A stretch of DNA of 64,000 nucleotides from a virus. The stretch is taken from positions 1-64,000 of IMG/VR virus record IMGVR_UViG_3300035179_000003; one strand, written 5' to 3'. Made by a program: the position numbers and the translations under genes. The notes beneath the pieces were generated by a model, which was not told the origin of the DNA, did not search any database, and saw only the letters and a program-made list of their open reading frames with translations. This document shows positions 4,774 through 57,810 of this stretch, in pieces (position 1 is the stretch's first letter; every line of letters starts with the position of its first letter).

Positions 4774-6777
4774 ATGGCAATTACATATGACCATGTCTAT
4801 GTAGATGTAGAAACTACCGGATTGGATCCAAGGGTTGATGAGGTTATTGAGGTTACCGCAATTGAATACAATCTCTCTGGAGAAGTCGGTAAATTAATTA
4901 CTTATATGTGCCGACCGATGTCCGGGCATGTTCCTAAAAAGGTTACCGATATTAATGGTATTACTTATGATATGGTTAAGGAAAAGCCATATTATTTAAA
5001 AGATAGCATCAGGGATGAGGTGGCGAAATTTATTGCACGAAGAACGTTGGTTGGACATAATATCAACTCGTTCGATATTAAATTTTTAAAAATTAAACCG
5101 TTAAAAACAATCGACACCTTAACGATTTCAAAAGAATTATTCCCCCGATCACGTCATAGTTTGGGTTTGATGTGCGAAAAACTTAATATTAAATTTGATA
5201 AAAAAGAAGCGCATAGGGCCGAATATGATGTTAGAAAAGGAGTTGAATTACATTTGAAACTAAATAAAATCTTAATCGATAAAAGTAAAAAAGAAGAAAA
5301 TCTTCCAATTTTTTCTACGGAAAAAGAACAAATTGAAGAATCGATTAAAATTAAAAAAATCGGAGTTATACCGACCGAAGAAGATAAACAGTTTTTTTAT
5401 ACACAATCATATTCATATTCAAGAATCAAGACGTTTCATGAATGTCCGTTTAAATGGTATATGTTGTATATAAAAAAGGTGAAAGAGCCGGAACGCGATT
5501 ATCTTGTTGTCGGAAATGCTTGTCATAAAATAGCTGAAGAGGCCGGCAGATGGTGTTACAAAGAAACCATTGTCAATAAAATAATTTCTTATAAAGGACG
5601 AGATTTAACGTTTGATCCGCATATAATATTCGACGATCCATCTAAAATATCAGAATATTTTCCTGGTTGTAATGGATTATATGATCTTGTTCATAAATTA
5701 GATAGCTCGATTACCGATTATGAAAAAGTGTCGATGCCCGATCGGGAAACTTATGATAAAATTACCAATTCCATCATAGCCAGATTAAGTATTACCGATA
5801 TCAATATTATTGGCGAGATTAAGTATATAATGAATTGGTTTTATATTAAACGTAATTTTTCAATTTCAATGAATGGCGTATTAATAATGGAAAAAAAATT
5901 AGCGTTTGATAAAGACTGGAATATCATAAATGATTTTTTTGCCAATAATGTATTCTTTCGTGGTATTATCGACGTCATTAAATATGATCATAAAGTTGTA
6001 GTCATTATTGATTATAAAACTTCCAGGACTATGATAAAGGAAGAAGAATTGGAAAATGATATGCAATTAAAAATGTATGTCATGATGGTTTATCATTTTC
6101 TTCCTCGCAATAGTTATACAAAAATTATAATTAAAATTGATTATATTCGTTTCTGTAAAGAAATTGTTTATGAAATCGGTGACGTTGAAAAATATGTTAA
6201 TGAGGCGAAACAATGGGTTAAAGATTCAATTAAACTCATTGAAACCCATATTATCAATAAAGATGGAACTGCATTCCAGCCAAAACGAAATGAGCATTGT
6301 GGAACATGTTTTCTTGGCGAAGATGGTATTTGTCCGTTATTCAATAAAAAGTTCATTAACGATATCGGCGATCCGTTTAATTTTATGATTAGATCGGCAG
6401 AGGACTGTGTAGCGGCTTATAAAAAAGCAGAAGTATTGGGCGCTGAATATGCCAATCTAATAAAAAAGTGTAAAGAATTTGTTAAAACAAGCGATCTTCC
6501 GATTATCATTGATGAAAATGCGCGTCTTGGATTTTATACAAAATCAGGAATTGATATATCCGCCGAAAAATTTGTTTTACTTATGTTAGGAAAAAATTTT
6601 AAATTGAGCGATTTTATAAAAGCATTCGGCGTGACCAAAACAAGTCTGGAAAAAATCCAGAAAATATTAAAAATTACTTTGAGCGATGCCGAGATAGAAT
6701 CTATTGGTGAAAAAACTAATAGAATAGAATTTAAAGCATTGACTCAGGAAGAAATTAACAAATATATAAATATATGA
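4774..6777 (+). CDS. DnaQ-like DEDDh 3'-5' exonuclease fused to PD-(D/E)XK (RecB/AddB/Cas4-like) nuclease
   Basis: N-terminal DVETTG, GHN..FD, HRAEYD motifs; C-terminal SYSRI..F..CP, GIID, IIDYKT, QL.MY and CxxC-x6-C cysteines. Confidence 0.9.
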   Translation: MAITYDHVYVDVETTGLDPRVDEVIEVTAIEYNLSGEVGKLITYMCRPMSGHVPKKVTDINGITYDMVKEKPYYLKDSIRDEVAKFIARRTLVGHNINSFDIKFLKIKPLKTIDTLTISKELFPRSRHSLGLMCEKLNIKFDKKEAHRAEYDVRKGVELHLKLNKILIDKSKKEENLPIFSTEKEQIEESIKIKKIGVIPTEEDKQFFYTQSYSYSRIKTFHECPFKWYMLYIKKVKEPERDYLVVGNACHKIAEEAGRWCYKETIVNKIISYKGRDLTFDPHIIFDDPSKISEYFPGCNGLYDLVHKLDSSITDYEKVSMPDRETYDKITNSIIARLSITDINIIGEIKYIMNWFYIKRNFSISMNGVLIMEKKLAFDKDWNIINDFFANNVFFRGIIDVIKYDHKVVVIIDYKTSRTMIKEEELENDMQLKMYVMMVYHFLPRNSYTKIIIKIDYIRFCKEIVYEIGDVEKYVNEAKQWVKDSIKLIETHIINKDGTAFQPKRNEHCGTCFLGEDGICPLFNKKFINDIGDPFNFMIRSAEDCVAAYKKAEVLGAEYANLIKKCKEFVKTSDLPIIIDENARLGFYTKSGIDISAEKFVLLMLGKNFKLSDFIKAFGVTKTSLEKIQKILKITLSDAEIESIGEKTNRIEFKALTQEEINKYINI

Positions 6778-6947
6778 GAACGATAAATATTTTTATTTTA
6801 TTATTCATAATTTTTTTTTTCACAATATCTGCCCCGTTATATGCCGTCTTAAGTATTTTTAAACTTCCTGAAGCATTTTTAAATTCTTTATATATCGGCA
6901 TTGGATGTGGTTTATTTATGGCAATTTATTTTTCAAGGAAATTATGA
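6774..6947 (+). CDS. Small two-helix membrane protein (57 aa), not in ORF track
   Basis: MRTINIFILLFIIFFFTISAPLYAVLSIF...LYIGIGCGLFMAIYFSRKL; ATGA start/stop overlaps with both neighbours (6774-6777, 6944-6947). Confidence 0.7.
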   Translation: MRTINIFILLFIIFFFTISAPLYAVLSIFKLPEAFLNSLYIGIGCGLFMAIYFSRKL

Positions 6948-7414
6948 AGTATAAAGAATACGCCAAAACATATCATGAAATTGTAGATACTACCCGAGTC
7001 TTAAACATAAAAAAAAGAAATCTTGAAGAGTTGATAAATGAATTAAAAGAAGATGGAAAATACGGACTGGAATTTACTAGTCATGGATTTTCCCAAATCG
7101 CGGAAAAACTTGAAGATCTTGCGGGGGATAACCAAATGATTTATAATGATGTTATAAGGCCAGATTCTCCGCAAGATGCATTGATAATTCCGTCAAATCT
7201 TAAATCATTTGTTATTAGTTTATTATCAATGGCTCTTGAAGAGGGTAATGTCGTAGAAAAGGATTCACGAACAAAAGGTAAAGAATTTCACTATATAACT
7301 GTTATTAAAAAATGGTTAATAAACAAAAAGGTGATTGAATTTACCTGTATTGTAGAGAATAACTGTATTAAAACGGGGTATTTTAATTATGTTGATTTTA
7401 CCGGGGAAAAATAA
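6944..7414 (+). CDS. Hypothetical protein
   Basis: Track ORF 6905..7414; start moved to the coupled ATG at 6944 (AAGGA upstream). Confidence 0.65.
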   Translation: MKYKEYAKTYHEIVDTTRVLNIKKRNLEELINELKEDGKYGLEFTSHGFSQIAEKLEDLAGDNQMIYNDVIRPDSPQDALIIPSNLKSFVISLLSMALEEGNVVEKDSRTKGKEFHYITVIKKWLINKKVIEFTCIVENNCIKTGYFNYVDFTGEK

Positions 7415-9155
7415 GGATGAATTAATTGTTGCGTGTAACGATCGTGATAAACTCGCCATAATTCAAGCTGTTACCGATGGAAGAAAAGTACGCGGAAACA
7501 ATCAAATCATTATTCATAAAAAAGCTGCAGTTAATCTTATACGGATGTTTAACGATATTCAATATCAAGATACTCAATTGATAGTTAAACATGCGTGTGA
7601 ATTATATACCGTAAGAATTGATAATATGAAAATGATAAAAAAATCCGACGGAACGAAATTTAATTATGATTATAAAGGAATTTATCCTGAAGTAATGAGA
7701 CATCAGAAAATAATGTACAATGCGATTATGTATACTGATTGCTGTGCGCTTCTCGCTGATCCCGGAACGTGTAAAACAGGTCCGTACATTTGGGCGATCG
7801 ATCGGCGTATTAAAGATGGGAAAATAAAAAGATGTCTTATTATTACGCTTTCTTCTTTAAAAGAAAATGTATTACGGGAAATTTCCATTCAAGCACCTCA
7901 TTTAAAGGCGGTTGCTATTTATGGTAAAGCAATAGCCGATAAAATAATTAATAAAAAATATAAAATTAAAAAATATAATCAGGATTATGACGTTTATATA
8001 GCGAACTATGAAAGTATGTTTGGCCTTGTCGAGATTTTTGATAATGATTTTTTCGATATGGTTATCTGTGATGAGGCTCATAGAATAGGATCTCCGCAGG
8101 CACGACAGACAAAATCAATTATTGATAAATTTGAAAATGTCAAATATAAATACATCATATCGGGAACGTTAAATGCCAATAATTTAATGTCATTTTTTAT
8201 GCCATTCAGATTTTTAGGCGCGGATACGATACCAGTGTCTAATTATAATGCTTATCGCGCCCAGCATATGTTTACCGTTGATCCTGACGGAGGATATGTG
8301 TGGAAGCCGAGAAGCGAAAATGATATTCAATATACTTCAAAAATTATCGGACTCATTTCGCTTTCTTTTAAAAAAGAAGAATGCATCGATCTTCCCCCTT
8401 TGATTCGGGAATATATGTATTGTACCATGTGTGGAGAACAACGAAAAGTGTATGAAGACTTAAAGAATGAATTTCTGGCGATTATTGATGATATGTGTAA
8501 AAAGTGTGATCGTTTTAATAATTGCAATATGCAATGCCAGGGAGAATTAACGGCAAAAAATGCCCTGGTATTAACCAGAAAATTACAACAAGTCGCTTCC
8601 GGATATTATATCAATACCCGATTTTTGATTAATGAAGATGGCAGCGAAATTGATATGAGGAATATTATTTATTTTGAATATAATGCTAAATTGCAATTAC
8701 TTCTTGAAGTTATGAGAACCATTCCGGATGGGAGAAAAACGATTATATGGAGTTATTCCATCCCCGCTTTGGAAATTATTAAAAAAAACGTAGAAATTGA
8801 GTTTGGAGACGAATCATGCCTTACCTGTTATGGGAACCAAGACGCTTTTAAGCAAATTAATATATTTAGGGAAAATGAAAAAATTAACTGGTTGATAGGA
8901 AATCCTGCCAAAATGGGTTCCGGTCACAATATTCAGTTTTCAAATTTTCAAATATTTTTTGATAATTCGTTTTCATATATCATGAAAGACCAGGCGGAAA
9001 GCAGGCAATATCGCCAGGGACAAAAAGAAAAAGTGACTGTAATTGAATTAATAACCAGGGATACTATAGACGAAAGGGTGGTTAGGGTTATCGATGATAA
9101 AAAGGATTTGTCTTTAACATTATCGCAGTGGGCCCAGGTATTTAGAAGGGAATAA
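7389..9155 (+). CDS. SNF2-family (SF2) helicase/ATPase
   Basis: DPGTCKT Walker A variant, DEAH, SGT, G.GHN, QAESR.YR.GQ motifs. Confidence 0.92.
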   Translation: MLILPGKNKDELIVACNDRDKLAIIQAVTDGRKVRGNNQIIIHKKAAVNLIRMFNDIQYQDTQLIVKHACELYTVRIDNMKMIKKSDGTKFNYDYKGIYPEVMRHQKIMYNAIMYTDCCALLADPGTCKTGPYIWAIDRRIKDGKIKRCLIITLSSLKENVLREISIQAPHLKAVAIYGKAIADKIINKKYKIKKYNQDYDVYIANYESMFGLVEIFDNDFFDMVICDEAHRIGSPQARQTKSIIDKFENVKYKYIISGTLNANNLMSFFMPFRFLGADTIPVSNYNAYRAQHMFTVDPDGGYVWKPRSENDIQYTSKIIGLISLSFKKEECIDLPPLIREYMYCTMCGEQRKVYEDLKNEFLAIIDDMCKKCDRFNNCNMQCQGELTAKNALVLTRKLQQVASGYYINTRFLINEDGSEIDMRNIIYFEYNAKLQLLLEVMRTIPDGRKTIIWSYSIPALEIIKKNVEIEFGDESCLTCYGNQDAFKQINIFRENEKINWLIGNPAKMGSGHNIQFSNFQIFFDNSFSYIMKDQAESRQYRQGQKEKVTVIELITRDTIDERVVRVIDDKKDLSLTLSQWAQVFRRE

Positions 9156-9159
9156 GATA

Positions 9160-9336
9160 ATGAAAAAATTTATTATTCTATTGTTATTAATTACATCATG
9201 CGGATATAGAATTGTTATAACCGAATCACCAAAATACACATATGATAATTGTAGGATCATAAAAATAAAACAATATAAAAAATTGGGAGTTACTTATTAT
9301 AAAATATTGATTAAAGAGGAAAGGTGTGAAAAATAA
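9160..9336 (+). CDS. Small putative lipoprotein (58 aa), not in ORF track
   Basis: MKKFIILLLLITSC: basic N-region, hydrophobic core, lipobox-like Cys; fills the gap between helicase and 9326. Confidence 0.65.
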   Translation: MKKFIILLLLITSCGYRIVITESPKYTYDNCRIIKIKQYKKLGVTYYKILIKEERCEK

Positions 9337-9595
9337 AAAAATTTATTTTGTTGAATATCAAAAAATGAATAAAAATAAAAAATGGTCAAATATAAAATCT
9401 TTAAATATTTTATCAGAAAATGATAAAAGTGTTATTAATAAATTTAAATTATATTTTGCTCCTGGAGAATATCAAATATCTATTCATATAAATGAACTTG
9501 CAAATAGATCTGGAATAATATTTGAGAATATAAAAAGTGGTGGTATACTATGCTTGACCGGTACCGGCATTAATGAAAGAATAATAGTAAAATGA
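9326..9595 (+). CDS. Hypothetical protein
   Basis: GTG start after GAGGAAAGG; packed in operon. Confidence 0.55.
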   Translation: MKNKKIYFVEYQKMNKNKKWSNIKSLNILSENDKSVINKFKLYFAPGEYQISIHINELANRSGIIFENIKSGGILCLTGTGINERIIVK

Positions 9596-9605
9596 AAGAA
9601 AAATT

Positions 9606-9794
9606 ATGGCATTAAAAAGGGTTTGTGATTTTTGTAATAAACAAATTATTAATATAGAAAAAACCATTTTTATATATAAAAAAAAGAAATTCAGAGTTGC
9701 CATTCTTAAAATTAATATTCAAAATGGTTTACGTTGGAGAGAAGCTGATATATGTGAAAAGTGTTTTAATAAACATGTAAAAGGAAGATTATGA
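9606..9794 (+). CDS. Small zinc-finger protein
   Basis: CDFC...DICEKC pairs. Confidence 0.65.
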   Translation: MALKRVCDFCNKQIINIEKTIFIYKKKKFRVAILKINIQNGLRWREADICEKCFNKHVKGRL

Positions 9795-10237
9795 TAAAAA
9801 ATTATACTTCTACAGTGTCAATAGCTAAATCGGTTCAACATATCGAAGAACGTTTAATGAAACATGGTGCCAAGCAGATTCTTAAAATTTGTGAAAATCA
9901 AAAATTAATCGGAATAGCGTTTAGCGTGGATGTTAATGGAAAAGAAATTCCATTTAAACTTCCAGCCAGAATCGATAGGGTTGAGCAACAATTATACAGT
10001 TTTGTTAAAAGACCGCGGCCTGATACGAAAAATAGAATTGCAGAACAAGCCGGGCGATCGGCATGGAAACTGTTGGCTGATTGGGTCGATATACAAATGT
10101 CGTTAATCGAACTCGATCAGGTTGAATTGGTTGAAGTATTCATGCCTTATATTTATGACGATTTTAATAAGCAAACATTTTTCGAAAAAATGAAAAATAG
10201 CGGATTTACGTTATTAGAAGATCGGCGTACAAAATAA
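9791..10237 (+). CDS. Hypothetical phage protein
   Basis: ATGA-coupled; NYTS.V...S...I...L..HGA and R.AW..L.DWV..Q pattern resembles a conserved phage family. Confidence 0.7.
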   Translation: MIKNYTSTVSIAKSVQHIEERLMKHGAKQILKICENQKLIGIAFSVDVNGKEIPFKLPARIDRVEQQLYSFVKRPRPDTKNRIAEQAGRSAWKLLADWVDIQMSLIELDQVELVEVFMPYIYDDFNKQTFFEKMKNSGFTLLEDRRTK

Positions 10238-10239
10238 TT

Positions 10240-10554
10240 ATGAGGATCACAAAAGATCAATTTATAAAAATGATAGAAAATTTTTCTTCAGACGTCGAGA
10301 TGGGCCAGTTTTTTCATAAAAGCAGACAATGGTCATGGAGAAAAAGAAAAAAATTTAAAATATTTTTTGGTATTGAGAAAAAAAAGAGAAACAAATCAAT
10401 TATAGAATTATACGATAATAATATTCGTATGAAAGAAATAGGAAAGCAGTTTTTCTTGTCAAAATCTCAAGTTTATAGAATAGTAAAGAAGGTCAAAGAT
10501 GCTAGAAAAAGACTTGCAGGCGAAAATCTTGAAATTCCTGGAATCAAGGAATGA
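10240..10554 (+). CDS. Putative helix-turn-helix DNA-binding protein
   Basis: RNKSIIELY...MKEIGKQFFLSKSQVYRIV, a Mor/sigma-4-like HTH pattern. Confidence 0.6.
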   Translation: MRITKDQFIKMIENFSSDVEMGQFFHKSRQWSWRKRKKFKIFFGIEKKKRNKSIIELYDNNIRMKEIGKQFFLSKSQVYRIVKKVKDARKRLAGENLEIPGIKE

Positions 10555-10786
10555 AGTATTTTCGTTTAAAATTAAACAAGCCAATAGAATTGGAATTCCT
10601 GATATTTTTTTTACTACCGTAAAAACCGGTCCATGGTTTGTGGAAATTAAACTGGAAAACGAGAAACCATTGATCCATCAATATGCAATAATAGATAAAT
10701 TAAATAAATGTGGAATGCGGGCAACATGGATATCCGGATGGGATGGGTGGATTGCTTTTGTTAAAAAAATCGGTTTATTGGAATAA
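10499..10786 (+). CDS. VRR-NUC domain nuclease (Holliday junction resolvase-like)
   Basis: MLEKDLQ.KI, GIPD, FVEIK, Q motifs. Confidence 0.85.
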   Translation: MLEKDLQAKILKFLESRNEVFSFKIKQANRIGIPDIFFTTVKTGPWFVEIKLENEKPLIHQYAIIDKLNKCGMRATWISGWDGWIAFVKKIGLLE

Positions 10787-10807
10787 CAATGATATAGGAG
10801 GAAAATT

Positions 10808-12412
10808 ATGAATGATGATTTTGCGCCTTATATCATTATAGAACAATGGATGACAGATGCTTTTCCGGATTTGGAGTATATCCATTATCCAATAGCTAAT
10901 AATATGGTTGTTATAATTAATGATAATGGGTGGGAAAAAATTGTTGATAAATCTGATATAGAAAAATGTGTTCTATTTGATTCTAATATTGAAGGAGTAA
11001 AAGTTGGAGTTACTTCATTGTGGGCTAATACTACATTGTTGGAATCTATTGTAACAGAAAATGTTAGATTATCACCAACGTATTCTGATATTTTTACTTG
11101 TATTATATCAAATAATATAAGTATTAAACAAAGAATAGAGATCTTACAATCAGAAGACAAGCCAAAAGAAGAGTTTATTTTACCAATTGAAAAAAACCCT
11201 TTATTTCTTAGTCCTTATTTAACTTTTGGAGAAGACGAGGTATTTATTGATACTTGTTGTAATGTCGAAGATCTTGAAATTCCATTATTACAATTTTCAA
11301 GAAAGTTAAAGAGAAAGATTATTGTGTTATATACATATAATTATAAAATAAATGATTTTGATGTATTTAATTCTGCATTCAAAATTTTTATAATTAGTGA
11401 ACACAACAGAGATTTTGTACCAGTACAAATAAATGGCGGTGCAATTTCATGTCTTGGATTTTTAACCAATTCTATTTATATTCCAAAACAAATGGATAAA
11501 AATACTTCGCCATACATAAAATATGATGTAATATTAAAGGATTCATTTACTAATGTAATCTTTAGTATCGGTAATAATGATGAAATGTATATCGTTATTC
11601 CGGGAGCTTCTGCTTTAGTTACTTTTATAAAAGAAATATGTAAAAGGTATAAATCTTCTGAAAATTTTGAAGAATTGGATAAAATGTATTATGAAAAATA
11701 TTTAAAAGAGAATAAAAAAAACTATATCAACATGGCAAAACAATCATCCATTCAAATAAAAAATGAATTGGTGGTAAAAGCGCAGTCGCTTCAAAATGAA
11801 TATGAGATATTGTTAAACAGTGTTTTGGAAAAAGCGAAAATGTTTAATGTAGTTCAAACTCAAATTAAGTATTTCGATCAACAAAGGTTTGATGAAGAAC
11901 AGGAAAAAAAATTTTCAGAAAATTATGATATGACTGAAGCATTAGACCGTGTTCATTCGATAATAATTAATCCAAACGGTATTGTTACTGTGAACACGAA
12001 AGAAATTTATGTAAAAGACGAACGCACCGGTAAATGGCATGAAATAGGAAAATTTTCAATTGTCATAGGTATGATTTCACAAAATTATGATATTCGTACA
12101 ACTGTGAGAATTAGAAATATTAAATATGGAGATTTGATTGCTGGTTATCAGGCGCCGCATGTCTTTAGTAATTGTTTAATGTGTCATGGCAATATAGAAG
12201 CAAGTATTGCCGATGCGTATAAAAATAAAAATCTATATGAATTGGTTTTATTAATCATACAATTTTTACAACATGCCAATACCGGGGATAGGGCGGGTGA
12301 GAATATCGACAAATGGCCTGAAGTGCCAGAAGATGTTGTGAAAGGGTTTCATAAAGTAGAAATTAAAAAAATAGATATTCCAATTTTTATCAAAAAGGAG
12401 GAAAAGTCTTGA
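10808..12412 (+). CDS. Coiled-coil protein with C-terminal prokaryotic E2 (UBC-fold)-like domain, paralog 1
   Basis: YQAPHVFSNCLMCHGN resembles the E2 HPN/HPH..C active-site flap; followed by LIIQFL..N..D.AG; in operon with JAB, E1 and Ubl. Confidence 0.7.
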   Translation: MNDDFAPYIIIEQWMTDAFPDLEYIHYPIANNMVVIINDNGWEKIVDKSDIEKCVLFDSNIEGVKVGVTSLWANTTLLESIVTENVRLSPTYSDIFTCIISNNISIKQRIEILQSEDKPKEEFILPIEKNPLFLSPYLTFGEDEVFIDTCCNVEDLEIPLLQFSRKLKRKIIVLYTYNYKINDFDVFNSAFKIFIISEHNRDFVPVQINGGAISCLGFLTNSIYIPKQMDKNTSPYIKYDVILKDSFTNVIFSIGNNDEMYIVIPGASALVTFIKEICKRYKSSENFEELDKMYYEKYLKENKKNYINMAKQSSIQIKNELVVKAQSLQNEYEILLNSVLEKAKMFNVVQTQIKYFDQQRFDEEQEKKFSENYDMTEALDRVHSIIINPNGIVTVNTKEIYVKDERTGKWHEIGKFSIVIGMISQNYDIRTTVRIRNIKYGDLIAGYQAPHVFSNCLMCHGNIEASIADAYKNKNLYELVLLIIQFLQHANTGDRAGENIDKWPEVPEDVVKGFHKVEIKKIDIPIFIKKEEKS

Positions 12413-13383
12413 AAATAATAATAAGACCTAGAGTTTTTGAATGGTATCCGAAACTTTTATTTTATGGTTTTGTTCCGGATGAATTTTTTACATCCGGTGG
12501 TCGTATATCAAGATCGATAGATGACATTGTTGTTTTTCAACATGAATCTGAAGAACAATTAAGAAGAATTTTAAATAATGATTCGATTTTTAATGAGCTA
12601 ATTGTAACTACAATTGATGACGGTTTTGTAGTTAATTTGCCACCAGCTAATCTTGTAGAAACGACAAGTCCCGTAACAGACGCTGATATCGTACCGGGAT
12701 TTGATGAAACGGAAGATGAAGATAATAGAATTATTGAAGTTAACCCTGATTATAGACTTCCTAAAAAAGAGGAAGAAAGCAATTATGCTATAAAAATAGC
12801 ACAATGTTTAAATAATTCCACTACATCTGAAGCAAGAGATTTAACGTCATTAATGGATCGATTTCATACATTAACAAATGAATTAATTAAAATTAAAAGA
12901 TTAATTGATTCAAAAGGTAAAGTGCTTGATTGTGATCCTGATGTTAAAAAGATCATAGAATCGATAATATATTTAAAAAAACATCCGAAAATTGATGATG
13001 TTTTTCTTTCCCCAGAGTTCAATATTAATATCGTCACAAAAGTTATAAAAGTAGAAGTTGAACATGTTATACGAATTTTGGGAAAGATGCTTATTATCCT
13101 TCCGTTGAAATTGTTCGTAGGGAGTAACCCCAATTTAAGTGGTATAAGAATTATTAATTTAACTCATATCATTTCTTATAATAGCACTCTGTATCAGGCT
13201 CCGCATGTTTATGAAAATGAGGGGTCTTGTTTTGGCGGAGCAACTTGTGATTTAATTATAAATGCAATTGCAGCCCGCGACGTAACTTTAACATTTTCGG
13301 CAATTTTACAGTTCTTAGAACTGCCGAATATTGAAGATGAAGCAGGCGAATGTGCGTTACTTTTGCCGGAGGCAAATAAATGA
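12409..13383 (+). CDS. Coiled-coil protein with C-terminal E2-like domain, paralog 2
   Basis: YQAPHVYENEGSCFGG...AILQFL..PN.EDEAG matches paralog 1 motif for motif; TTGA overlap. Confidence 0.7.
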   Translation: MKIIIRPRVFEWYPKLLFYGFVPDEFFTSGGRISRSIDDIVVFQHESEEQLRRILNNDSIFNELIVTTIDDGFVVNLPPANLVETTSPVTDADIVPGFDETEDEDNRIIEVNPDYRLPKKEEESNYAIKIAQCLNNSTTSEARDLTSLMDRFHTLTNELIKIKRLIDSKGKVLDCDPDVKKIIESIIYLKKHPKIDDVFLSPEFNINIVTKVIKVEVEHVIRILGKMLIILPLKLFVGSNPNLSGIRIINLTHIISYNSTLYQAPHVYENEGSCFGGATCDLIINAIAARDVTLTFSAILQFLELPNIEDEAGECALLLPEANK

Positions 13384-14228
13384 AATTACGAGTAATGAAT
13401 ACTAATATAGTATTCGCCCCTAAAATTATTATTGACCAAAAAGCAAAAGAGTGGATGAAAGCCATTGTCGATCTTCATGAAACTGAAGTTGGATTTTATG
13501 CATTGTCTACGATGAGGGATGACAATACCTTTTTTATTAGCGACGTGTATTACCCGAAACACAATATCGCTAATTTGGGACATTGCGAAATAGCAGATAG
13601 TGGTCAATCCGATTTCATGAGATTGCTTATAAGTCAAGGTAGAGAAGACGATGTTGGTAAGATTAAAGTATGGGGCCATTCTCATGTTGATATGGGAATA
13701 AGCCCAAGTAAAGATGACCATGATCAAGCCATGGAATCGGCACGAGACAATAAGGATTATTTTATCAGATTAATCACAAATAAGAAACATCAGATAGGCG
13801 TTTCTTTTTATGACTATAAAAAAAATCTGATTTATGATGAAGTAGGTTGGGAAATAGAAGTATCAAATGCCGAATCAATTTATGAAACCAAGGTAAATCA
13901 GATAATAAATATTATTACAGCAAATCAAAATTATACACAGGCGATAAAAGAAATTCGTCTGGTATTGGATAATAATGTTTTTTATCAAGAGGCATGTGAA
14001 TATATAAAATTAAAAAAAGAAGAAAACATGCCACAGCCTACATTTAATGGACAAACAAATTTGTTTGCGCATTCATATGATTTCGGTTTTAAAAATGATC
14101 AAAGATTTTTTTCAAAAAAAAACAAAACAAGTTTTACGCCATTTTTCGAAAGAGATCCCGTCGATCAGATGGGATTAGAAAACCTATTGGATGAAGATAG
14201 TTATTACGGAAAGGGGTTTTACGAATAA
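13380..14228 (+). CDS. JAB/MPN+ (JAMM) metallopeptidase, putative deubiquitinase/Ubl maturase
   Basis: EVGFY glutamate plus WGHSHVDMGISPSKDD = H-x-H-x7-S-x2-D zinc motif. Confidence 0.9.
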   Translation: MKLRVMNTNIVFAPKIIIDQKAKEWMKAIVDLHETEVGFYALSTMRDDNTFFISDVYYPKHNIANLGHCEIADSGQSDFMRLLISQGREDDVGKIKVWGHSHVDMGISPSKDDHDQAMESARDNKDYFIRLITNKKHQIGVSFYDYKKNLIYDEVGWEIEVSNAESIYETKVNQIINIITANQNYTQAIKEIRLVLDNNVFYQEACEYIKLKKEENMPQPTFNGQTNLFAHSYDFGFKNDQRFFSKKNKTSFTPFFERDPVDQMGLENLLDEDSYYGKGFYE

Positions 14229-14956
14229 TGGATTACAATCGTCAAAACAAATTATTGAATGTTGCAAAAATAGGTAAAAAAAGTATCACTTTAATAGGAG
14301 CCGGGGCTGTTGGATCACACGTTGCCTTGTTATTGACCCAAATGGGATGGGGCGATCAAAGCAGTGACCAAGGAGTTATTAACGTATTTGACTTTGATAA
14401 AGTCGAAGAGCATAATCTGGCAAATCAGATATATGATCCGTCTCATGTCGGAAAATTCAAGGTTGATGCTCTTAATGAGGCAATTAAGAAAAAGTGTGGT
14501 TTCGGAATTAATACTTTTAATGAAAAAGTAATTAATCAAACCGCGAACGTTCAATCTACCTATGTTTTTCTTATGGTGGATACCATGGCAGGCAGAAAAG
14601 AAATTTTTGATAACTGCCTGCGTTATAGTTTCGATACCCAGTTGGTAATCGAGACTCGAATGGGGTTAGATGAAGGTCGAATTTATGCATTCAATCCCGC
14701 AAATAGGGAGCATTTACGTGAGTGGGAATTTTCCTTGTATTCAGATCAAGAGGCCGAATTATCATTATGCGGGACCAGTATGGCTATAGCGATGACCGCT
14801 TGGTATATTGCAAGTCTTGCAGTTTCCAGAGTAATTCAGCATTTTAATGATAAAAAAGATTTATGGAATGAATTTCACTTTTGTTTATGTCCCGAATCAT
14901 ATTATTATAGAAGGTTTAGTGAAAAACCTTTTATGTTACAACAATTTAATTCATAA
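14228..14956 (+). CDS. ThiF/MoeB/E1-family adenylyltransferase (Ubl-activating enzyme)
   Basis: RQ, GAGAVGS, DFDKVEEHNLANQ, K, VDTM..R motifs; candidate catalytic Cys in LSLCG. Confidence 0.93.
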   Translation: MDYNRQNKLLNVAKIGKKSITLIGAGAVGSHVALLLTQMGWGDQSSDQGVINVFDFDKVEEHNLANQIYDPSHVGKFKVDALNEAIKKKCGFGINTFNEKVINQTANVQSTYVFLMVDTMAGRKEIFDNCLRYSFDTQLVIETRMGLDEGRIYAFNPANREHLREWEFSLYSDQEAELSLCGTSMAIAMTAWYIASLAVSRVIQHFNDKKDLWNEFHFCLCPESYYYRRFSEKPFMLQQFNS

Positions 14957-14968
14957 GGAGTAATAAAG

Positions 14969-15424
14969 ATGATTCTGGTAAAATTGATGAAGTTGGGAAT
15001 TCCGGTTGTTGAATACAGCATGGAAGATGGAGCAACCGTTTCCGATTTATTTGAAACGGCTGATGAGGAGTTCAAGGGAACAGTAACCATTCTTGACCGT
15101 CCCGTAGATGAAGACACGGTTCTTCGTGATGGTGACCGGGTTTTCGTATCGGCCAAAGTAAAAGGCAGCACCCCTCTTGAGGTAAAACTCTTGAGGGTCG
15201 GCGGCGCTACAACCAAAACCTATGTAGTGGAATCTGGGACAAGTCTCGGGGATTTCATTAATGGGTTGGAAGACAAGGATGATTACATAGACGCAAGCGG
15301 TAATCACAAGTGGACCTACACCGATGTTGTGGGCGTCGTATTGAGCCTTGGATATACATTCTCTGGCACTCCGGAACAGGTAATACGCATTCTCCTGTCC
15401 AAAAAGACCAAGGGAAGCAGGTAA
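14969..15424 (+). CDS. Tandem two-domain ubiquitin-like (beta-grasp) protein
   Basis: Domain 1 VKL..G...EY.MEDGATVSDL...LRDGDRVFV..KVKGS; domain 2 VKLL.VG....Y.VESGTSLGDF...ILLSKKTKGSR; strong TAAGGAG RBS; adjacent to E1. Confidence 0.85.
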   Translation: MILVKLMKLGIPVVEYSMEDGATVSDLFETADEEFKGTVTILDRPVDEDTVLRDGDRVFVSAKVKGSTPLEVKLLRVGGATTKTYVVESGTSLGDFINGLEDKDDYIDASGNHKWTYTDVVGVVLSLGYTFSGTPEQVIRILLSKKTKGSR

Positions 15425-15503
15425 ACCTCAAAAAAAGGAGTTTCAAATGGTACAGGATGCTATGTATCAGCTAATTTTTAACCTGATGTTATTCCTTTTT
15501 GAT

Positions 15504-15527
15504 AGGGGGCCGAAAGGCTCCCTTTTT
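15504..15527 (+). terminator. Intrinsic terminator closing the Ubl operon
   Basis: AGGGGGCC-GAAA-GGCTCCCT hairpin followed by T run, between convergent genes. Confidence 0.85.
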
Positions 15528-15532
15528 AGCTA

Positions 15533-17566
15533 TCAAATGCCAGCTGTTGGAGATCGCGGGGGCAATTGCTCTGGTAAAGATTGTGATTGTGATTCAATAG
15601 GTTCGGTTTCTACAACCTGATCTTGCTCTGTTGTAACCGGTTGTTGTGTTTCTGGATCTATTGGTACTATCTGCGGAATTCCTGCTAATAAATCAGCTTC
15701 TATCATTTGTAATTCTTTGAGATTTTTATAGACTTCTTGATAAGTATGTGGCATTGATTTGCTCATAATAAACATTCTTAATGTAAATTCTTCACGACTA
15801 AGACGGGATAGCGTGGCAAATCTTTGTGTAAGCATCATTATGATTTGCTGAACAGTAAATTGTTGAACTCCACCCATTTCCTCACTAAGTTTTGATCCAT
15901 CTTCCTGTGTTTTATTAATCGACGATTTATTATGGCGTTCTCTGGATTCCTGTTCGGCGGAATACATTTTATTATTGAATTCAACCTGAGCATCGGCGTT
16001 GAATCTCTGTTGTATTATACCCGCTTTACCACCTGCCGATGCCTCGCCTTCCAATTCTTCAATTCTTAATTCAATCGATTGACTCGTTTCTTCCATTATA
16101 TTTTTAAACTCAGTTTCCGGATCCATATCCAGTTCTTGTATTGCCGTCGTTCTTGATACGACGCGCTGTGATGGTGTTCCGGAAGAAGCCTGCAGGAGCA
16201 TACCTTTTCTTTGTATATCATCAGCCATTTTGAATGGCGACATTTTAATATCGATTTCAGGAATATTAAAATAAATCGCCAAATGATTTTTTACCCAATC
16301 TATCAATTCATGCATACTGGTTCGATGATTGATAAATCTATTTTCAACAATTCTGAGAGAAACATTGCTCCCCGACCATGATGCGCCACCCCTTATAATT
16401 TCAGGTATTACGCCCATGCCGGTAATAATTCCATCTTCGGTCTGTTTTATTTCAGGAGTAGTCATTAATAATCTGGCTTCTCCGCTGAAGGTCTGAAAAC
16501 CAACCGGTAACGGCATGATGGATATATGGTTAGGATCTACCTTCCATTTTCTAAGCTCTTCTTCAATTTTCTGTCTCCAACTGGTTAAATTAATAGTGGC
16601 ATGGGGAGAAACATCACCTGTTCCCTGTGGAAATATAATTCTCAATGGAACGATATGATCGAGCGAAATCATTTCGTTTCCCTTTTTCAGAATTTTAAGA
16701 TGAAACACGTCTTTTAAAACAGGCAATACCGTCGGAATCCCCCATCCACGTTCAGATGGATAAAAGTATTGCGGTCCGGGTTGTTTAAAATAAAAAACAT
16801 TATCATTTTTTAATTTTAATTGTTTGTTCTGTTTTACAGCGTCTAAAATTTCAATACGCAAGGAGTTGACTATATCAAGATCGCCCTTTTTAACAGCCTC
16901 TACGAGAAACGGGGGTATCTGATAATAAAAAAAATGTTCATTTGTTATATTATTATATTTAATTTCAATAAACAGAAGATCCCATAAAATAATACTTAAT
17001 TTATCTGTTTCTTTAGTCTGCATGTCGCTGATTTCAAAATCGGTTAATGATCCACAGGATGAGCATTTTCCTTTATATATATAATTTTTATATTCAAGAT
17101 CAGTCTCTGATTCGACAGTATTTATAGTGTTACATTTTTTACATGTTAATAATCTCTTAAATGGAAAATGTATGGAAATAAGGCTGGATCCATATGCATG
17201 ATAATCCATTCCTATTTGATGCATGACTTTGATGAATTTTAATTTTTTCTCAAAAATATCTTTCCATTTATCAACCGTTTTATCGCCTTCGATAAATGAT
17301 TTTTTTTGATCGGTAAATTTGAGCGAAGTAATGGGGTATTCGGACATTCGTGCAATACATTGATATACAAGCGGATCAGAAAGAATACTGGAGGCTATAA
17401 ACCGGAACATACCTTTAATTGTTTTAGGTATGAATGTATTGGTCATATCTAGGAACGGGGAATCGTATTTAATAGACGATCGGGTGAAAGAAACTTTAGT
17501 TTCCCCACCGCCCCCTGGGACACCACTCGGACTCAATACGTTTCCAGCTAAGCCTTCTGCTGCCAT
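15533..17566 (-). CDS. Putative portal protein with zinc-ribbon insertion
   Basis: Size, DYHAYGSSLISI, GWGIP, acidic Q/P-rich tail and position in the head block are portal-like; CKKC/CSSC insert. Confidence 0.65.
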   Translation of the reverse strand: MAAEGLAGNVLSPSGVPGGGGETKVSFTRSSIKYDSPFLDMTNTFIPKTIKGMFRFIASSILSDPLVYQCIARMSEYPITSLKFTDQKKSFIEGDKTVDKWKDIFEKKLKFIKVMHQIGMDYHAYGSSLISIHFPFKRLLTCKKCNTINTVESETDLEYKNYIYKGKCSSCGSLTDFEISDMQTKETDKLSIILWDLLFIEIKYNNITNEHFFYYQIPPFLVEAVKKGDLDIVNSLRIEILDAVKQNKQLKLKNDNVFYFKQPGPQYFYPSERGWGIPTVLPVLKDVFHLKILKKGNEMISLDHIVPLRIIFPQGTGDVSPHATINLTSWRQKIEEELRKWKVDPNHISIMPLPVGFQTFSGEARLLMTTPEIKQTEDGIITGMGVIPEIIRGGASWSGSNVSLRIVENRFINHRTSMHELIDWVKNHLAIYFNIPEIDIKMSPFKMADDIQRKGMLLQASSGTPSQRVVSRTTAIQELDMDPETEFKNIMEETSQSIELRIEELEGEASAGGKAGIIQQRFNADAQVEFNNKMYSAEQESRERHNKSSINKTQEDGSKLSEEMGGVQQFTVQQIIMMLTQRFATLSRLSREEFTLRMFIMSKSMPHTYQEVYKNLKELQMIEADLLAGIPQIVPIDPETQQPVTTEQDQVVETEPIESQSQSLPEQLPPRSPTAGI

Positions 17567-17585: not shown

Positions 17586-17840
17586 CTATCTTAAACCACT
17601 TGTTAATTTTTTACGTATTTCAGAAAAGTGTTTGAAGGTTTGCTCAATATCTTTAAGATTGCGCTTAGAAAATTGCACATTATTAATAACACGCTTTAAG
17701 GTGTCTCGATTCGCTGAACCAATCATTGTATGCAAAGGACCATTCACTTTACCGCTAGACCTGAGTATTTGAACAATCTTACTATTACTCAACGCAACCT
17801 TCTCAAGTTCACCCTTTAATGCATTCCCAATCTTAACCAT
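17586..17840 (-). CDS. Small hypothetical virion protein
   Basis: In structural block; contains ELEKVA. Confidence 0.6.
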   Translation of the reverse strand: MVKIGNALKGELEKVALSNSKIVQILRSSGKVNGPLHTMIGSANRDTLKRVINNVQFSKRNLKDIEQTFKHFSEIRKKLTSGLR

Positions 17841-17861
17841 AATTTATCTCTGCTTTGATCG

Positions 17862-19028
17862 TTATGTTAAATAAATTGAACCTGTATGAAATATAGTGGT
17901 AATTTTTTTTATTCCAAAATTTCCATCACTACAACAAACAGTTTTTCCATATGTTGAACACCCTTTAACAATATGTATTTTTCTTTTTATAAATACAAAA
18001 TCACCAGGCTGTATTGAATATCTTTGTTTACGGATAGATGGCTTAAAACCCTTTCTATTCAACTGCAAAACCCTATTATTTCTATGTTTCTGCTTAAATA
18101 TAATTGGAGCCACTTTTCTCTGTTCGTTTCCACCAGCTATTACAAAAGCATCGTTATAATGGCTTTTTTCTAACCTCAAAATATTTCTTTTAACAAAAGT
18201 CTCATTTCCATAAATTAACTTACAATTTGATAAAATATTTCTGAATTTATTCCTTATTATACTCATAAATGTTGCATCTTTGTAAACCTTATTCTTTTTT
18301 AACACATCATACAACTTGTTCTTATGCAATTTCTTATGACATCTCTCATGCAACAAAGCCAAATTCTTCTCCCGGTCTATTCCACCGTTACTCCTCGATA
18401 TAATGTGGTGAATATGAAAACTGTTACCTTTTGAAAACTCTTTACCGCATAACTGACATCTTCCCTGCTCCCGGAACATTAAAAAACTTCTCATGTTTTG
18501 ATATTCAAACAACGATCCTTGTTGATATTGTATTCCTGCTATATCTGGATTCTCTATTTTCTGAATATCAAAATTACCTACTTCAATTACAACATTCTTA
18601 ATTGGTAATAGTTTTTTTAGCTTGTTAATCAAGGTTATGTGGGTGTTGAATCTTCTCTGTGTTGAAGGTGGTAAATAACCAATAGCTGTTTTTCTATTGT
18701 TAAATCTTGGCTTTCTATACCACAATCTACTCCTTCTACCCCTTCGATACATTCTCTTTTCTATAAGTCTCTCAGATGTCCTTTGATCCAAAAGAAGCGT
18801 TCCTGCTACTATTTCTTTTTTATCAGTTATTGCTGAAAAACCTATATTCTTAAAACCGCTGTCTATTCCCAAAGAACAATCTTGAACCTGATTCTCACAC
18901 TCAAAATTCAATTTAATAACAAATGGATTCTGCTTTACAACATGCGCTTTTCCTCCTTCTAAAAGATGCCTTGCCTTTGTACTTGTGCATGGCATTAAAG
19001 GTTTTCCATTAATTGACAATACAAACAC
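17862..19028 (-). CDS. iscB: RNA-guided endonuclease IscB
   Basis: VFVL...GKPLMPC (PLMP), RuvC-I GIDSG, RRGRR bridge helix, RuvC-II IEVG.FD, HNH with CQLC..HH..N..H, RuvC-III HYNDA; start set at GTG 19028, though the frame is open to ATG 19202. Confidence 0.93.
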   Translation of the reverse strand: MFVLSINGKPLMPCTSTKARHLLEGGKAHVVKQNPFVIKLNFECENQVQDCSLGIDSGFKNIGFSAITDKKEIVAGTLLLDQRTSERLIEKRMYRRGRRSRLWYRKPRFNNRKTAIGYLPPSTQRRFNTHITLINKLKKLLPIKNVVIEVGNFDIQKIENPDIAGIQYQQGSLFEYQNMRSFLMFREQGRCQLCGKEFSKGNSFHIHHIISRSNGGIDREKNLALLHERCHKKLHKNKLYDVLKKNKVYKDATFMSIIRNKFRNILSNCKLIYGNETFVKRNILRLEKSHYNDAFVIAGGNEQRKVAPIIFKQKHRNNRVLQLNRKGFKPSIRKQRYSIQPGDFVFIKRKIHIVKGCSTYGKTVCCSDGNFGIKKITTIFHTGSIYLT

Positions 19029-19286
19029 AATGCTTTTAAAGCCGGGTGCTTGTTCCCGTTGATCCACTTCGAGATTGTTTAAAGTCCGTACTTTATCCTG
19101 TACACTGACTCTTTCAAGTCTGTTTAATACAGGATTTACAGAGCAAGGAACTAGTGGAGTATTCCTTGGTGTGTTCTTAAACTTTACTTTAAACTGCTGC
19201 ATAGATAAACAACCTAAGCCCTCTAATCAACTCTTACGTTGAATCTCACGATTCAAGCTCCGGCCCTTGTGGCCGGAGTAGTTGAC
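19029..19286 (-). ncRNA. Predicted omega-RNA scaffold of IscB
   Basis: Lies between element left end and PLMP start; begins GTCAACTA-CTCCGGCC-ACAAG-GGCCGGAG-CTTGAATCGTGAGATTCAA (consecutive hairpins). Confidence 0.75.
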
Positions 19287-20024: not shown

Positions 20025-20690
20025 TTACAACAGTTTACCTTTGAATAAAACTTGATCGATCGGTTTTAATTCCTGAAAAGCCTTCACAGGATTGTCGCTA
20101 TACGATTTAGAAAATTTTTCACCGAATATAGACGCGACCTTCTCCATCTTAACCTTCTTACATGCCACCTTCCTAAGATCAAGCGAAGACACTTTAATAT
20201 GTTCGGATATCCGCTCCTCGGAAGGATCGAATCCAAAAACAGTAAGAACCGGATCCGGTATTTCTTTGTCATACCCAGACTGCAGGTTCGCCAGTTTATC
20301 GAATTCAAGTAAGGCATGTAGAACTACAAGTCCAGGAAAGTTGTCAGTGGCCAATGATGCTATCTTATCAAGCATCTTGATTGCATCGACACCGACCACG
20401 GTAGTCTTCATTGGATGGCATGCAACTTTCCGAAACTCAATCCCCTTCTTAAAAAAGTCAGAGATATTTGCCTTTAGATTCGCAACCTTAGCATAATTAG
20501 AAACGATCTGATTGTCGATGACGACATTAAGATCGTTCGCTCTCTTTTCGAGATTGGTTGCAAAAGTAATTCGATCCTGAACATCAAATCTTTCAAGAAA
20601 TTTTACAAAATAAGCCGCAGCCAATTTGACATGTTCAGCCGTCTCTATCGGATAACGTTCACGTATACAATAATGCATTTTTTGCTCCAT
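20025..20690 (-). CDS. Hypothetical head-associated protein
   Basis: RYPI.T..HV..A..YF N-terminus; multiple K-[VIL]-A motifs. Confidence 0.65.
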   Translation of the reverse strand: MEQKMHYCIRERYPIETAEHVKLAAAYFVKFLERFDVQDRITFATNLEKRANDLNVVIDNQIVSNYAKVANLKANISDFFKKGIEFRKVACHPMKTTVVGVDAIKMLDKIASLATDNFPGLVVLHALLEFDKLANLQSGYDKEIPDPVLTVFGFDPSEERISEHIKVSSLDLRKVACKKVKMEKVASIFGEKFSKSYSDNPVKAFQELKPIDQVLFKGKLL

Positions 20691-55754: not shown

Positions 55755-57111
55755 AATTAATAAACATTTTTGTTAATAATCCATAAAATGTAGAAACCTT
55801 CTCAAGGTTTTTTTCAACATCCATTGTATAAAATGCGGGTGCGCGCAATGCGCCTGAAGAATATTGTTGTGGAGATTTAACCCTGGCAACCATTCCAACA
55901 TAATTTTCCGGATGAGCCAACATGTCTTTTCGTTTTTCCTGAGTGAAACCTGTACCGACATTGCCAACAATTTTACCTTTTGGCGTCAAACTATACTGAA
56001 AACCACCGGCTTCATTCTTTTTTACTTGTGGATAAATATTCCGTATATAAACGTCATGGGTATCCCGGAATTTTTGCTTTCTTGGCGAACCGCCCGGTTT
56101 ATTTAAATCCCACTCGACGACGCCTTCAACGGTATCCGGATGTTTTTGTTTCTGTATTTTATTAAGCAGATCCTGTTTGTCCTTTTGTGTTATGACAGTT
56201 TCAGCAACACGCATCGCAGGAATCTTTAATTCTACCTGTTTCATCATTTTCAACTTATCGGCATAAGGCGCGCTCGAAACATCCTTGCCTTTAAATTTTA
56301 CTATATCGAAAATATATGGTTTGAGCGGAGCTGTTTGTTTTTGTTTTTCCAAACTCTTATCAACATTTGAATTTAATATTCCACTGATTTGTTCTGCAGG
56401 AAGAGGGCCTTTGGACGTTGTTCCATATAAATCACCCCTCAATACCGTTCCGCTCAATGATTCAGGAACTTTTAAATCGCGTAAATGTGGAACCTGATTA
56501 GTATGTTCAATGGGTTTGCCGGTTTTTTTACTGGTACGATATGAGTAAATATCATTTTCTTTATTAGCATTTAATTGAAATATTGAATGACTGCCATCGA
56601 CCTTTGGTTGTAAAACTTTATTTTCATCGGAAAAATCCAATGATTTTTTAACGGTTTGATATTTTGGCTTTGAAGTAACGGGATTTTTAATTACTGACGT
56701 CTTAATCATCAGCCAATGTTTATCATCAGCGCCTTTTGGACGTATCATTGTAAAATAACCTTCAGGCAACTTCATTTTAATTTTATCATTCGTCGCTGAA
56801 ATAACTTTTATTTTTTCATCATATACTTTTTTAACTGTCCCGGCGCCATATCCCTTTTTAATCTTTCCCTCAAAATCCATATAGCTTGATAAATGTGTAG
56901 GCTGTCGTATAGCAAGAGTTTTCTGTTTTTCACCAGGCAATGATCTGGTTACCCAACTATGTGCAATTCCTTTATCTTTTAAACGTATATCATAATGTTC
57001 GGTTTTTGCTTTGTGTTTTTGAACAACAAGACGCGTGGTACCTTTTTGATTTATAGGATCAAATCTGGTACGGGAGGGGAGGCCTGGGGCATCATGTTTA
57101 TTTTCATCCAT
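55753..57111 (-). CDS. ATP-dependent DNA ligase with N-terminal LigD-type 3'-phosphoesterase domain
   Basis: N-terminal VVQKH.A...HYD.RL...SW...H..Y.DFEG.I..GYGAG.V; ligase motifs KVDG, FDI, EGVV, VGTGF, LRAP.F. Confidence 0.88.
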   Translation of the reverse strand: MDENKHDAPGLPSRTRFDPINQKGTTRLVVQKHKAKTEHYDIRLKDKGIAHSWVTRSLPGEKQKTLAIRQPTHLSSYMDFEGKIKKGYGAGTVKKVYDEKIKVISATNDKIKMKLPEGYFTMIRPKGADDKHWLMIKTSVIKNPVTSKPKYQTVKKSLDFSDENKVLQPKVDGSHSIFQLNANKENDIYSYRTSKKTGKPIEHTNQVPHLRDLKVPESLSGTVLRGDLYGTTSKGPLPAEQISGILNSNVDKSLEKQKQTAPLKPYIFDIVKFKGKDVSSAPYADKLKMMKQVELKIPAMRVAETVITQKDKQDLLNKIQKQKHPDTVEGVVEWDLNKPGGSPRKQKFRDTHDVYIRNIYPQVKKNEAGGFQYSLTPKGKIVGNVGTGFTQEKRKDMLAHPENYVGMVARVKSPQQYSSGALRAPAFYTMDVEKNLEKVSTFYGLLTKMFIN

Positions 57112-57800
57112 TATCTATAACTCGCAATTTTATTCGACATGGCGCGCTTTCGTCGCGTTATCCACATATCATTTACGTTCAATTTTTTAGCTATGTCCTT
57201 ATTACTCAATATCGGTTTGCCGGCATATCCGAATGTATGCTCGAAAATAACCTTGTCCTTATCTTCCAACTCCTGATATAAATAATCGGCAAGCGCCTTG
57301 TCCTTACTTTCGGCCTGCACCGCGTTTCCGTAAAAATCAAACGACGCCTTGGATGCAGTCGTTTCTCCGCTCAACTCGTTAATCATCCTCGCCGATTCTT
57401 TACGGTTCCACCCAAGCTCGTCTGATATCTGATCGATATTAGGTTCATACCCTAAACGATCGGTGAGATTTATCACTGCCGTGCGAAATGTAGCGCGTTT
57501 TAAATTACGCGCTTCTGGTATATGGCCGGAAATCAAACTCTCGGAAGCAACGCGCTGCACTTTTTTCAAATTATTATATATATGCGTTATTGGTTGGGTA
57601 CCCAGAGTCGGATCATAAGAATTAAACGCTTTAATCATCTGGGATTGAGCATTAGCCCTTAATGTAGAAGGGGAAACGCCGACCGTGCGATAATGGCCGA
57701 CAACACTTTCAATGACTGGTTTATATCGCATTGATAATTCAGAAAACAGTACGGGATCTTTAGTTTTCTGCCATTGCATAATCATGTCTACTTCATTCAT
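57111..57800 (-). CDS. Phage sigma-70-family RNA polymerase sigma factor
   Basis: Region 2 (A..SYDP..G....T), region 3 (LG.EP...I.DELG), region 4 HTH (LSNKDIAKKLNV); start moved from 57836 (inside the mini-element) to 57800. Confidence 0.88.
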   Translation of the reverse strand: MNEVDMIMQWQKTKDPVLFSELSMRYKPVIESVVGHYRTVGVSPSTLRANAQSQMIKAFNSYDPTLGTQPITHIYNNLKKVQRVASESLISGHIPEARNLKRATFRTAVINLTDRLGYEPNIDQISDELGWNRKESARMINELSGETTASKASFDFYGNAVQAESKDKALADYLYQELEDKDKVIFEHTFGYAGKPILSNKDIAKKLNVNDMWITRRKRAMSNKIASYR

Positions 57801-57810
57801 TTTTTGGTAT

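Follow-up and report, generated by a model that had tools for sequence, protein, structure and literature searches.

Polyubiquitin genes, such as yeast UBI4 and human UBB and UBC, encode head-to-tail units that each carry the same tail, followed by a short cap, and their product is processed by a tail-specific peptidase. The two-domain modifiers ISG15 and FAT10 are used uncut and carry their conjugation tail on the second domain only. In sampylation, a single-domain ThiF-type E1 (UbaA) and a JAMM peptidase (HvJAMM1) act without an E2, and the modifier, SAMP2, consists of one uncapped unit with a Gly-Gly end, its terminal glycine being the conjugated residue.

Operons that combine such functions are also described from bacteria. 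The Bil operons, a form of bacterial anti-phage defence, encode a ubiquitin-like protein (Ubl; BilA), an E2 (BilB), a JAB peptidase (BilC) and an E1 (BilD); the end of BilA is masked and is trimmed by BilC after a conserved glycine, and BilD is a large E1 with an inactive and an active adenylation domain and a CYS domain (10.1101/2023.09.26.559546). Type I BilA has two beta-grasp domains (PMC11601603). In type I Bub, a system with a Ubl-E2 fusion (BubAB), oxyester intermediates on Tyr/Ser and a DUF6527 protease, the JAB of the operon cuts an internal bond after the Ubl domain and thereby frees a reactive end (PMC11601596). Among the papers searched, none was found on phage-encoded poly-Ubl precursors or on a K-G-N tail.

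The DNA analysed here (the window) comprises positions 1 to 64,000 of the IMG/VR virus record IMGVR_UViG_3300035179_000003, an 80-kb record with a completeness of 44% (CheckV) whose source is a large phage, uncultured and with a GC content of 33%. It contains a two-domain Ubl gene as part of an operon with a ThiF-type E1, a JAMM-type peptidase and two E2-like proteins.

The operon and its Ubl gene

The Ubl gene (14969..15424, + strand) is a 151-aa ORF in which the same tail occurs twice, as K-V-K-G-S at residues 63–67 (nt 15155-15169) and as K-T-K-G-S at residues 146–150 (nt 15404-15418), the latter followed by R151 and TAA, in agreement with an earlier note on this DNA that had read both domains as ending in K-x-K-G-S. 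Two matches to K.KGS occurred at a frequency of 1e-5 among 300,000 shuffles of the protein, and chance recurrence of the tail was ruled out on this count. Unit 1 (14969..15169, + strand; residues 1–67) is a SAMP2/ThiS-like beta-grasp domain ending in K63-V-K-G66-S67, supported by the strands and helix of an AlphaFold2 model and by profile matches, and unit 2 (15170..15418, + strand; residues 68–150) is a longer beta-grasp domain ending in K146-T-K-G149-S150, supported by AlphaFold2 and Foldseek; the cap Arg151 and the TAA stop (15419..15424, + strand) were read from the sequence.

Upstream, four genes are tightly packed with the Ubl gene, and together they form a five-gene operon. Two of the four are paralogs (BLASTP 5e-8), E2-like a (10808..12412, + strand; 534 aa) and E2-like b (12409..13383, + strand; 324 aa, with a TTG start), which share a C-terminal module of ~130 aa and have different N-termini. 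In the module, an invariant Cys-x-Gly follows a conserved His (APHV) by eight residues, a spacing found in both window paralogs and in the E2-like a of a distant relative (L007, below), and an HMM of the module gave one match per protein. No Pfam, PADLOC, NCBIfam or PDB-profile match was obtained for it; a weak lead came from the protein-atlas neighbours of paralog b, viral clusters partly annotated with Prok-E2_D (scores 0.79–0.85). Of the proposal that the window encodes two E2 paralogs, the paralogy is borne out, whereas no sequence library recognises the two proteins as E2; on the conserved His and Cys-x-Gly and the weak atlas lead they are candidate carrier (E2) enzymes.

The JAB protease postulated earlier is indeed encoded in the operon, as a JAB/JAMM metallopeptidase (13380..14228, + strand; 282 aa) with a weak match to Pfam Prok-JAB (E 0.08) and an intact HxH..S..D motif (H100-S-H102...S110..D113) that is invariant among six phage homologs. 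It is followed by the short ThiF-type E1 (14228..14956, + strand; 242 aa), directly upstream of the Ubl gene, which has a single adenylation domain (ThiF domain, residues 12–210; Pfam ThiF, 2.3e-21). The nucleotide-binding and catalytic residues of the E1 (GxGxxG, D55/D57/E60/N63/Q67 and R144) are, like C181, invariant among five phage homologs, and its best NCBIfam matches are ThiF models, all below cut-off.

The Ubl gene is preceded by a Shine-Dalgarno site, AAGGAG (14955..14960, + strand), 8 nt before the ATG, which was read from the sequence and compared with the neighbouring genes; the strong ribosome-binding site remarked on previously is therefore real, but its standing as a peculiarity of the Ubl gene was rejected, since sites just as good precede three of the four genes upstream in the operon. 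The higher GC content that had been suspected was confirmed (0.47, versus 0.28–0.36 in the four upstream operon genes), and the GC3 of the Ubl gene (0.49) is the highest among the 46 window ORFs, compared to 0.20–0.31 in the four upstream genes. The next-highest GC3 values in the window belong to a sigma-factor-like gene at 57111-57836 (0.44) and to a gene at 20025-20690 (0.40). The codon usage of the Ubl gene, the most biased in the window, suggests that much tag is made, although the cause of its high GC3 may be either high expression or recent acquisition. An intrinsic-terminator-like hairpin (15504..15533, + strand; an 8-bp stem with 6 GC pairs, then TTTTT) lies 80 nt downstream and closes the operon, of which the Ubl gene is the last and probably the most highly expressed member. 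A 57-aa ORF at 15447-15620, between the Ubl stop and the terminator, has its own AGGAG site, runs into the end of a convergent portal-like gene and is probably not a gene.

Fold and kinship of the two units

An AlphaFold2 model of the 151-aa Ubl from its single sequence had a pLDDT of 40; with 34 homologs the pLDDT rose to 91.6 and two beta-grasp units were predicted, with matching order of strands and helix. Confidence in the latter model dips only at the junction (mean pLDDT 74 for residues 61–70) and at the extreme C-terminus, the pTM of the two-domain arrangement is 0.74, and each K-x-K-G-S tail lies directly behind the final strand of its beta-grasp domain. The best Foldseek matches in the PDB were linear di-ubiquitin, ISG15 and FAT10 (E about 5e-7), with a probability of 1.00 for di-ubiquitin and ISG15 and alignments that cover both domains.

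By sequence, units 1 and 2 of the window Ubl have no BLAST similarity to each other, and the single sequence reached Pfam ThiS only below cut-off (E 0.02). A profile of the family restricted to K-G-N tails matched SAMP2 in the PDB (5lda, 8e-5; 2l32, 1.2e-3), and a broader unit profile that included GG-ending relatives matched MoaD (5e-5) and ThiS (1e-2), so that, judged by sequence profiles, unit 1 has SAMP2 as its nearest relative of solved structure. On the modelled beta-grasp fold and these profile relationships, the Ubl would fall within the ThiS/MoaD/SAMP superfamily. With regard to the C-terminal glycine, a conserved glycine is present, and the position of the last glycine is occupied by Ser here and by Asn in 92% of the unit ends.

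Relatives, unit number and tail motif

An exhaustive HMMER search returned 71 relatives (representatives) of the window Ubl, all of them uncultured. These carry one, two, three or four units, some with mixed unit types (e.g. D1-D1-D2) and some with units up to 97–100% identical within one protein (P0014, P0018 and P0055), a pattern that fits independently acting units. Together with the occurrence of the same tail at the junction and the C-terminus, it upholds the comparison with a polyubiquitin precursor made in the earlier note. In 34 relatives with two domains there is no variation at G66, K148 and G149, conservation reaches 90% or more at K65, N67 and N150, and the order of unit 1 then unit 2 is constant. 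In searches with other methods, a word-based search gave only near-identical proteins for the Ubl and an E2-like protein, scans of IMG/VR with the window Ubl, P0002, P0039 and an E1 peptide pattern gave nothing new, and the scan of a single metagenome returned solely a 97%-identical relative (L006). Among deposited phages there was no match for the operon DNA or for three Ubls of the family.

Unit ends were defined by a match to [K/R/V]-G-[N/S/G] combined with spacing filters, so that the glycine is part of the definition, and 138 ends were counted in 70 proteins (74 internal and 64 terminal). The glycine is preceded by Lys in 130/138 ends (68/74 internal; 62/64 terminal) and followed by Asn in 127/138 (69/74 internal; 58/64 terminal), by Gly in 8/138 and by Ser in 3/138. 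Internal sites thus match the motif as closely as terminal ones, whereas a lack of conservation of the internal K-G had been named beforehand as grounds for abandoning the precursor reading. The tail itself is repeated at both ends as claimed, but the family motif is K-G-N, and the Ser that had been taken as part of the motif is a lineage-specific variant, present at both sites and only in the lineage of the window (the window, P0001 and L006). Similarly, in one two-domain relative of 155 aa (P0038), K-A-N stands at the junction and again at the C-terminus, with the otherwise conserved glycine changed at each. Such concerted changes argue that one partner reads both sites.

None of the 64 terminal sites ends at the glycine, while 14 genes stop one residue later. 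Beyond the Asn/Ser column the tail comprises 0–5 residues that are variable in most relatives, and 10–24 residues in six. In a protein of 2488 aa (P0050), five stretches match the Ubl query and the K-G-N/S/D/T tail motif is absent; this protein may use beta-grasp units as structural repeats.

Genomic context of relatives

The genomic context was compared for three independent relatives. In an IMG/VR phage (L007) with a Ubl 35% identical to that of the window and ending in ..TKGN, the same five genes occur in the same order, and its E2-like a is an ortholog of the window protein (E 6e-44). The two phages also share neighbours: upstream, an SNF2 helicase gene and a VRR-NUC-like gene, and, in convergent orientation, the putative portal gene of the window or its homolog. 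In both of these distantly related phages the operon is placed between replication genes and the portal gene.

A further record (L001, IMGVR_UViG_3300035208_004993) encodes two separate GG-type Ubl genes, two E2-like proteins, two JABs and one E1 at 5787-10907, in the order Ubl (..SGGSR), E2-like, JAB, E1, Ubl (..EGGR), small ORF, E2-like and JAB, with the duplicated copies being paralogous (Ubl, 5e-18; JAB, 3e-25; E2-like, 6e-10). The HMM of the E2-like module found exactly two modules each in the window, L007 and L001. Two Ubl moieties are therefore matched by two candidate E2 modules in three independent lineages, a small sample that would fit pairing between Ubl and E2.

A related ThiF beside a JAMM protein was found in Flavobacterium phage FpV4 (L004 1613-5624) and in the crAss-like phage cr111_1 (L005 1785-5660), each with one protein that has a similar His...Cys-x-Gly motif. 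In these cultured or named Bacteroidota phages the ThiF is annotated as ‘thiamine biosynthesis protein’, and the set is preceded by a protein of 211-289 aa with an N-terminus that appears Ubl-like by eye; this stretch ends in ..KSGG or ..IRSG, and a long extension comes after it. The reading of this gene as a Ubl with an extension was by eye, received no support from Pfam and was set aside. In L006, the portal-like gene is almost directly followed, across 12598-12623, by a 235-aa gene, without the ~1.6 kb that occupy 17586-19252 in the window and contain an 84-aa ORF and a 446-aa IscB-like HNH protein (PHROG HNH endonuclease, 1.8e-63); as far as the sequences go, the absence of this segment fits a recent insertion in the window.

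Comparison with described systems

Unit 1 resembles SAMP2 as a small ThiS-like beta-grasp domain, with the SAMP2 tail (..I-K-G-G) lining up with K-G-N/S, and the operon shares with sampylation the single-domain ThiF-type E1 and the JAMM peptidase. Unlike SAMP2, the window Ubl is a two-unit precursor with Ser/Asn in place of the last glycine, and unlike sampylation, the system includes two E2-like proteins and has a phage as its owner; the NCBIfam UbaA model scored 18.5 bits against the window E1, compared to a cut-off of 450. The likeness to Bil operons lies in the presence of a Ubl, a JAB, an E1 and a putative E2 in one operon and in the masked end of the Ubl, with the E2 identity in the window resting on the conserved His...Cys-x-Gly module and the protein-atlas lead. 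The differences are ownership by a phage rather than a role in bacterial defence, an E1 of 242 aa with one ThiF domain in place of the large BilD, and a tail at the junction, where an internal tail or internal cut is unreported for BilA. Among PADLOC models, the Bil set gave only a partial match of the E1 to BilD (E 2e-4) that ranked below many CBASS E1-E2 models, and BilA, BilB and BilC gave no match for the Ubl, the JAB or either E2-like protein. With respect to PRTRC cassettes and operon class 6d (Iyer et al. 2006), PRTRC_ThiF scored 43.4 bits (cut-off, 144.75) and the other four proteins had no PRTRC match. On sequence criteria, the system resembles Bil or sampylation in outline and falls outside Bil, PRTRC and UbaA.

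In common with polyubiquitin, the units are arranged head to tail, the K-x-K-G-S tail is repeated and a cap (R151) follows, with up to four units in relatives. The two window units, however, are different and without detectable similarity, identity of units (97–100%) being confined to some relatives, the tail is K-x-K-G-S/N as opposed to R-L-R-G-G, the sequence is nearer to SAMP2/ThiS, and the predicted peptidase is a JAMM of the same operon. ISG15 and FAT10 are, with linear di-ubiquitin, the best structural matches to the whole two-domain model, but here both domains carry the tail. As in type I Bub, an operon-encoded JAB is predicted to cut an internal bond, while a Ubl-E2 fusion, oxyester intermediates and a DUF6527 protease were not seen in the window.

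Proposed cleavage of the precursor

The explanation that we favour, at about even chances, is that the gene encodes a polyubiquitin-style precursor of two different tags that would be cut at both junctions, more likely after Ser67 and Ser150. The JAMM peptidase would cut both K-G-(N/S) junctions and release unit 1 (~67 aa) and unit 2 (~83 aa), and the E1 would adenylate the new C-termini of both units and, through its Cys181, hand them over to the conserved Cys in each of the two E2-like proteins, which would attach the tags to phage or host proteins. The working end, where SAMP2, MoaD and ThiS have their terminal Gly, would be Ser in the window and Asn in its relatives.

The earlier note had placed both cuts after the glycine. 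In that version, which we think unlikely though well worth entertaining, cleavage by the JAMM peptidase follows Gly66 and Gly149 and leaves tags with a Lys-Gly end, and the peptidase needs the Ser/Asn at P1'. All Ubl-type tags that have been mapped experimentally are, to our knowledge, activated at glycine, and UFM1 is matured between the Gly and Ser of Val-Gly-Ser-Cys, both of which speak for this site. So do BilC, which cuts BilA between G97 and A98 at a single conserved glycine and removes one residue (10.1101/2023.09.26.559546), and BubCD, the JAB domain of which cuts BubAB immediately after G229 (PMC11601596), as well as the invariance of the glycine in the 34 two-domain relatives and the fact that ..GG-SR of L001 and ..KG-SR of the window can be aligned by their ends. 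A cut after glycine, however, leaves unexplained that 0/64 terminal sites end there. It also sits poorly with 92% Asn at the next residue, compared to type II BilA, in which the residues after the glycine are not conserved (10.1101/2023.09.26.559546), and dependence on P1' is ruled out for a peptidase that strips tags off lysines as well. In the unit ends the Asn/Ser column matches the Gly column in conservation and keeps a constant spacing from a conserved DGD turn (+10, Gly; +11, Asn/Ser/Gly), and it aligns without gaps with the last glycine of GG-ending relatives, of which P0062 and P0057 stop there and the L001 Ubls are capped (..GGSR and ..GGR). The K-G-N-only profile likewise sets K-G-N on K-G-G66 of SAMP2, a register that is a gapless alignment of a flexible tail and valid for unit 1 only, because the last strand of unit 2 is longer. 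From this register, the lack of genes ending at the glycine and the 14 that end one residue later, cuts after Ser67 and Ser150 rather than after Gly66 and Gly149 seem probable, and we would rate the former site about twice as likely as the latter.

Another reading is an uncut protein. ISG15 and FAT10 offer the model of a single two-domain tag, shared with type I BilA, in which only the C-terminal cap is removed and the internal K-G-S is a structural or binding motif. The bacterial two- and three-domain proteins Ubl2 and Ubl3 do act as whole proteins (PMC11601603), the pTM of 0.74 allows for a fixed arrangement of the domains and the order of units is constant in the 34 two-domain relatives; nevertheless, we consider an uncut tag quite improbable, given that the tail motif is kept as closely at internal sites as at terminal ones, that the first domains of ISG15 and FAT10, in contrast, have no tail, that unit number and type vary freely (one to four units, identical repeats, D1-D1-D2, single-unit genes), that the Ubls of L001 are two separate genes and that model confidence dips at the junction. 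The units could also be sulfur carriers of the ThiS/MoaD/TtuB type, converted by the E1 to thiocarboxylates for thiolation of phage nucleic acids or cofactors and not used as protein tags, and the nearest solved relatives (SAMP2, MoaD and ThiS) and the short ThiF-type E1, with ThiF models as its best if sub-threshold NCBIfam matches, are in line with this. The operon, however, lacks a cysteine desulfurase, a rhodanese and a thiolation enzyme and instead contains a JAMM and two conserved-Cys proteins, and sulfur carriers are not known to come as multi-unit precursors or with a non-Gly end, which makes this use very improbable. Least credible, with only a slender chance, is that the residue after the glycine acts chemically, with Asn forming a succinimide in a self-cleaving precursor or, after adenylation, as in the E1-like enzyme MccB, which activates a C-terminal Asn by adenylation via a succinimide intermediate (PMC4010828). 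The Asn at 127 of the 138 sites would suit such a route, but Ser stands at both sites in the window lineage and Gly in other relatives, and neither residue can form a succinimide. These variants argue against Asn-specific chemistry in the family and suggest that the residue is recognised for its size, with Asn chemistry not needed, at least here; self-cleavage dependent on Asn was rejected on the Ser of the window lineage.

Implications

If two different tags are indeed released after the serines, then one phage polyprotein might supply two orthogonal tags, each with its own E2-like enzyme and each activated through a C-terminal Ser instead of a Gly (in relatives, through Asn), a fuller scheme that we regard as possible but doubtful. 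Nature would then have set up, in the two different units, a test of how two tags and two carrier proteins share one E1 and one peptidase. Whether the E1 of this family can activate a non-glycine end is the question posed by the conserved residue that follows the glycine, and here the Ser variant of the window is useful, as it already argues against Asn-specific chemistry. Type II CBASS, Bil and Bub are bacterial systems and, where a role has been shown, act in defence against phages, whereas here the kit is owned by the phage. Should the scheme of two orthogonal tags hold, it would be the first case among ubiquitin-type conjugation families of a working end other than glycine, with a bacterial virus running the system for purposes of its own, such as the tagging of virion or host proteins.
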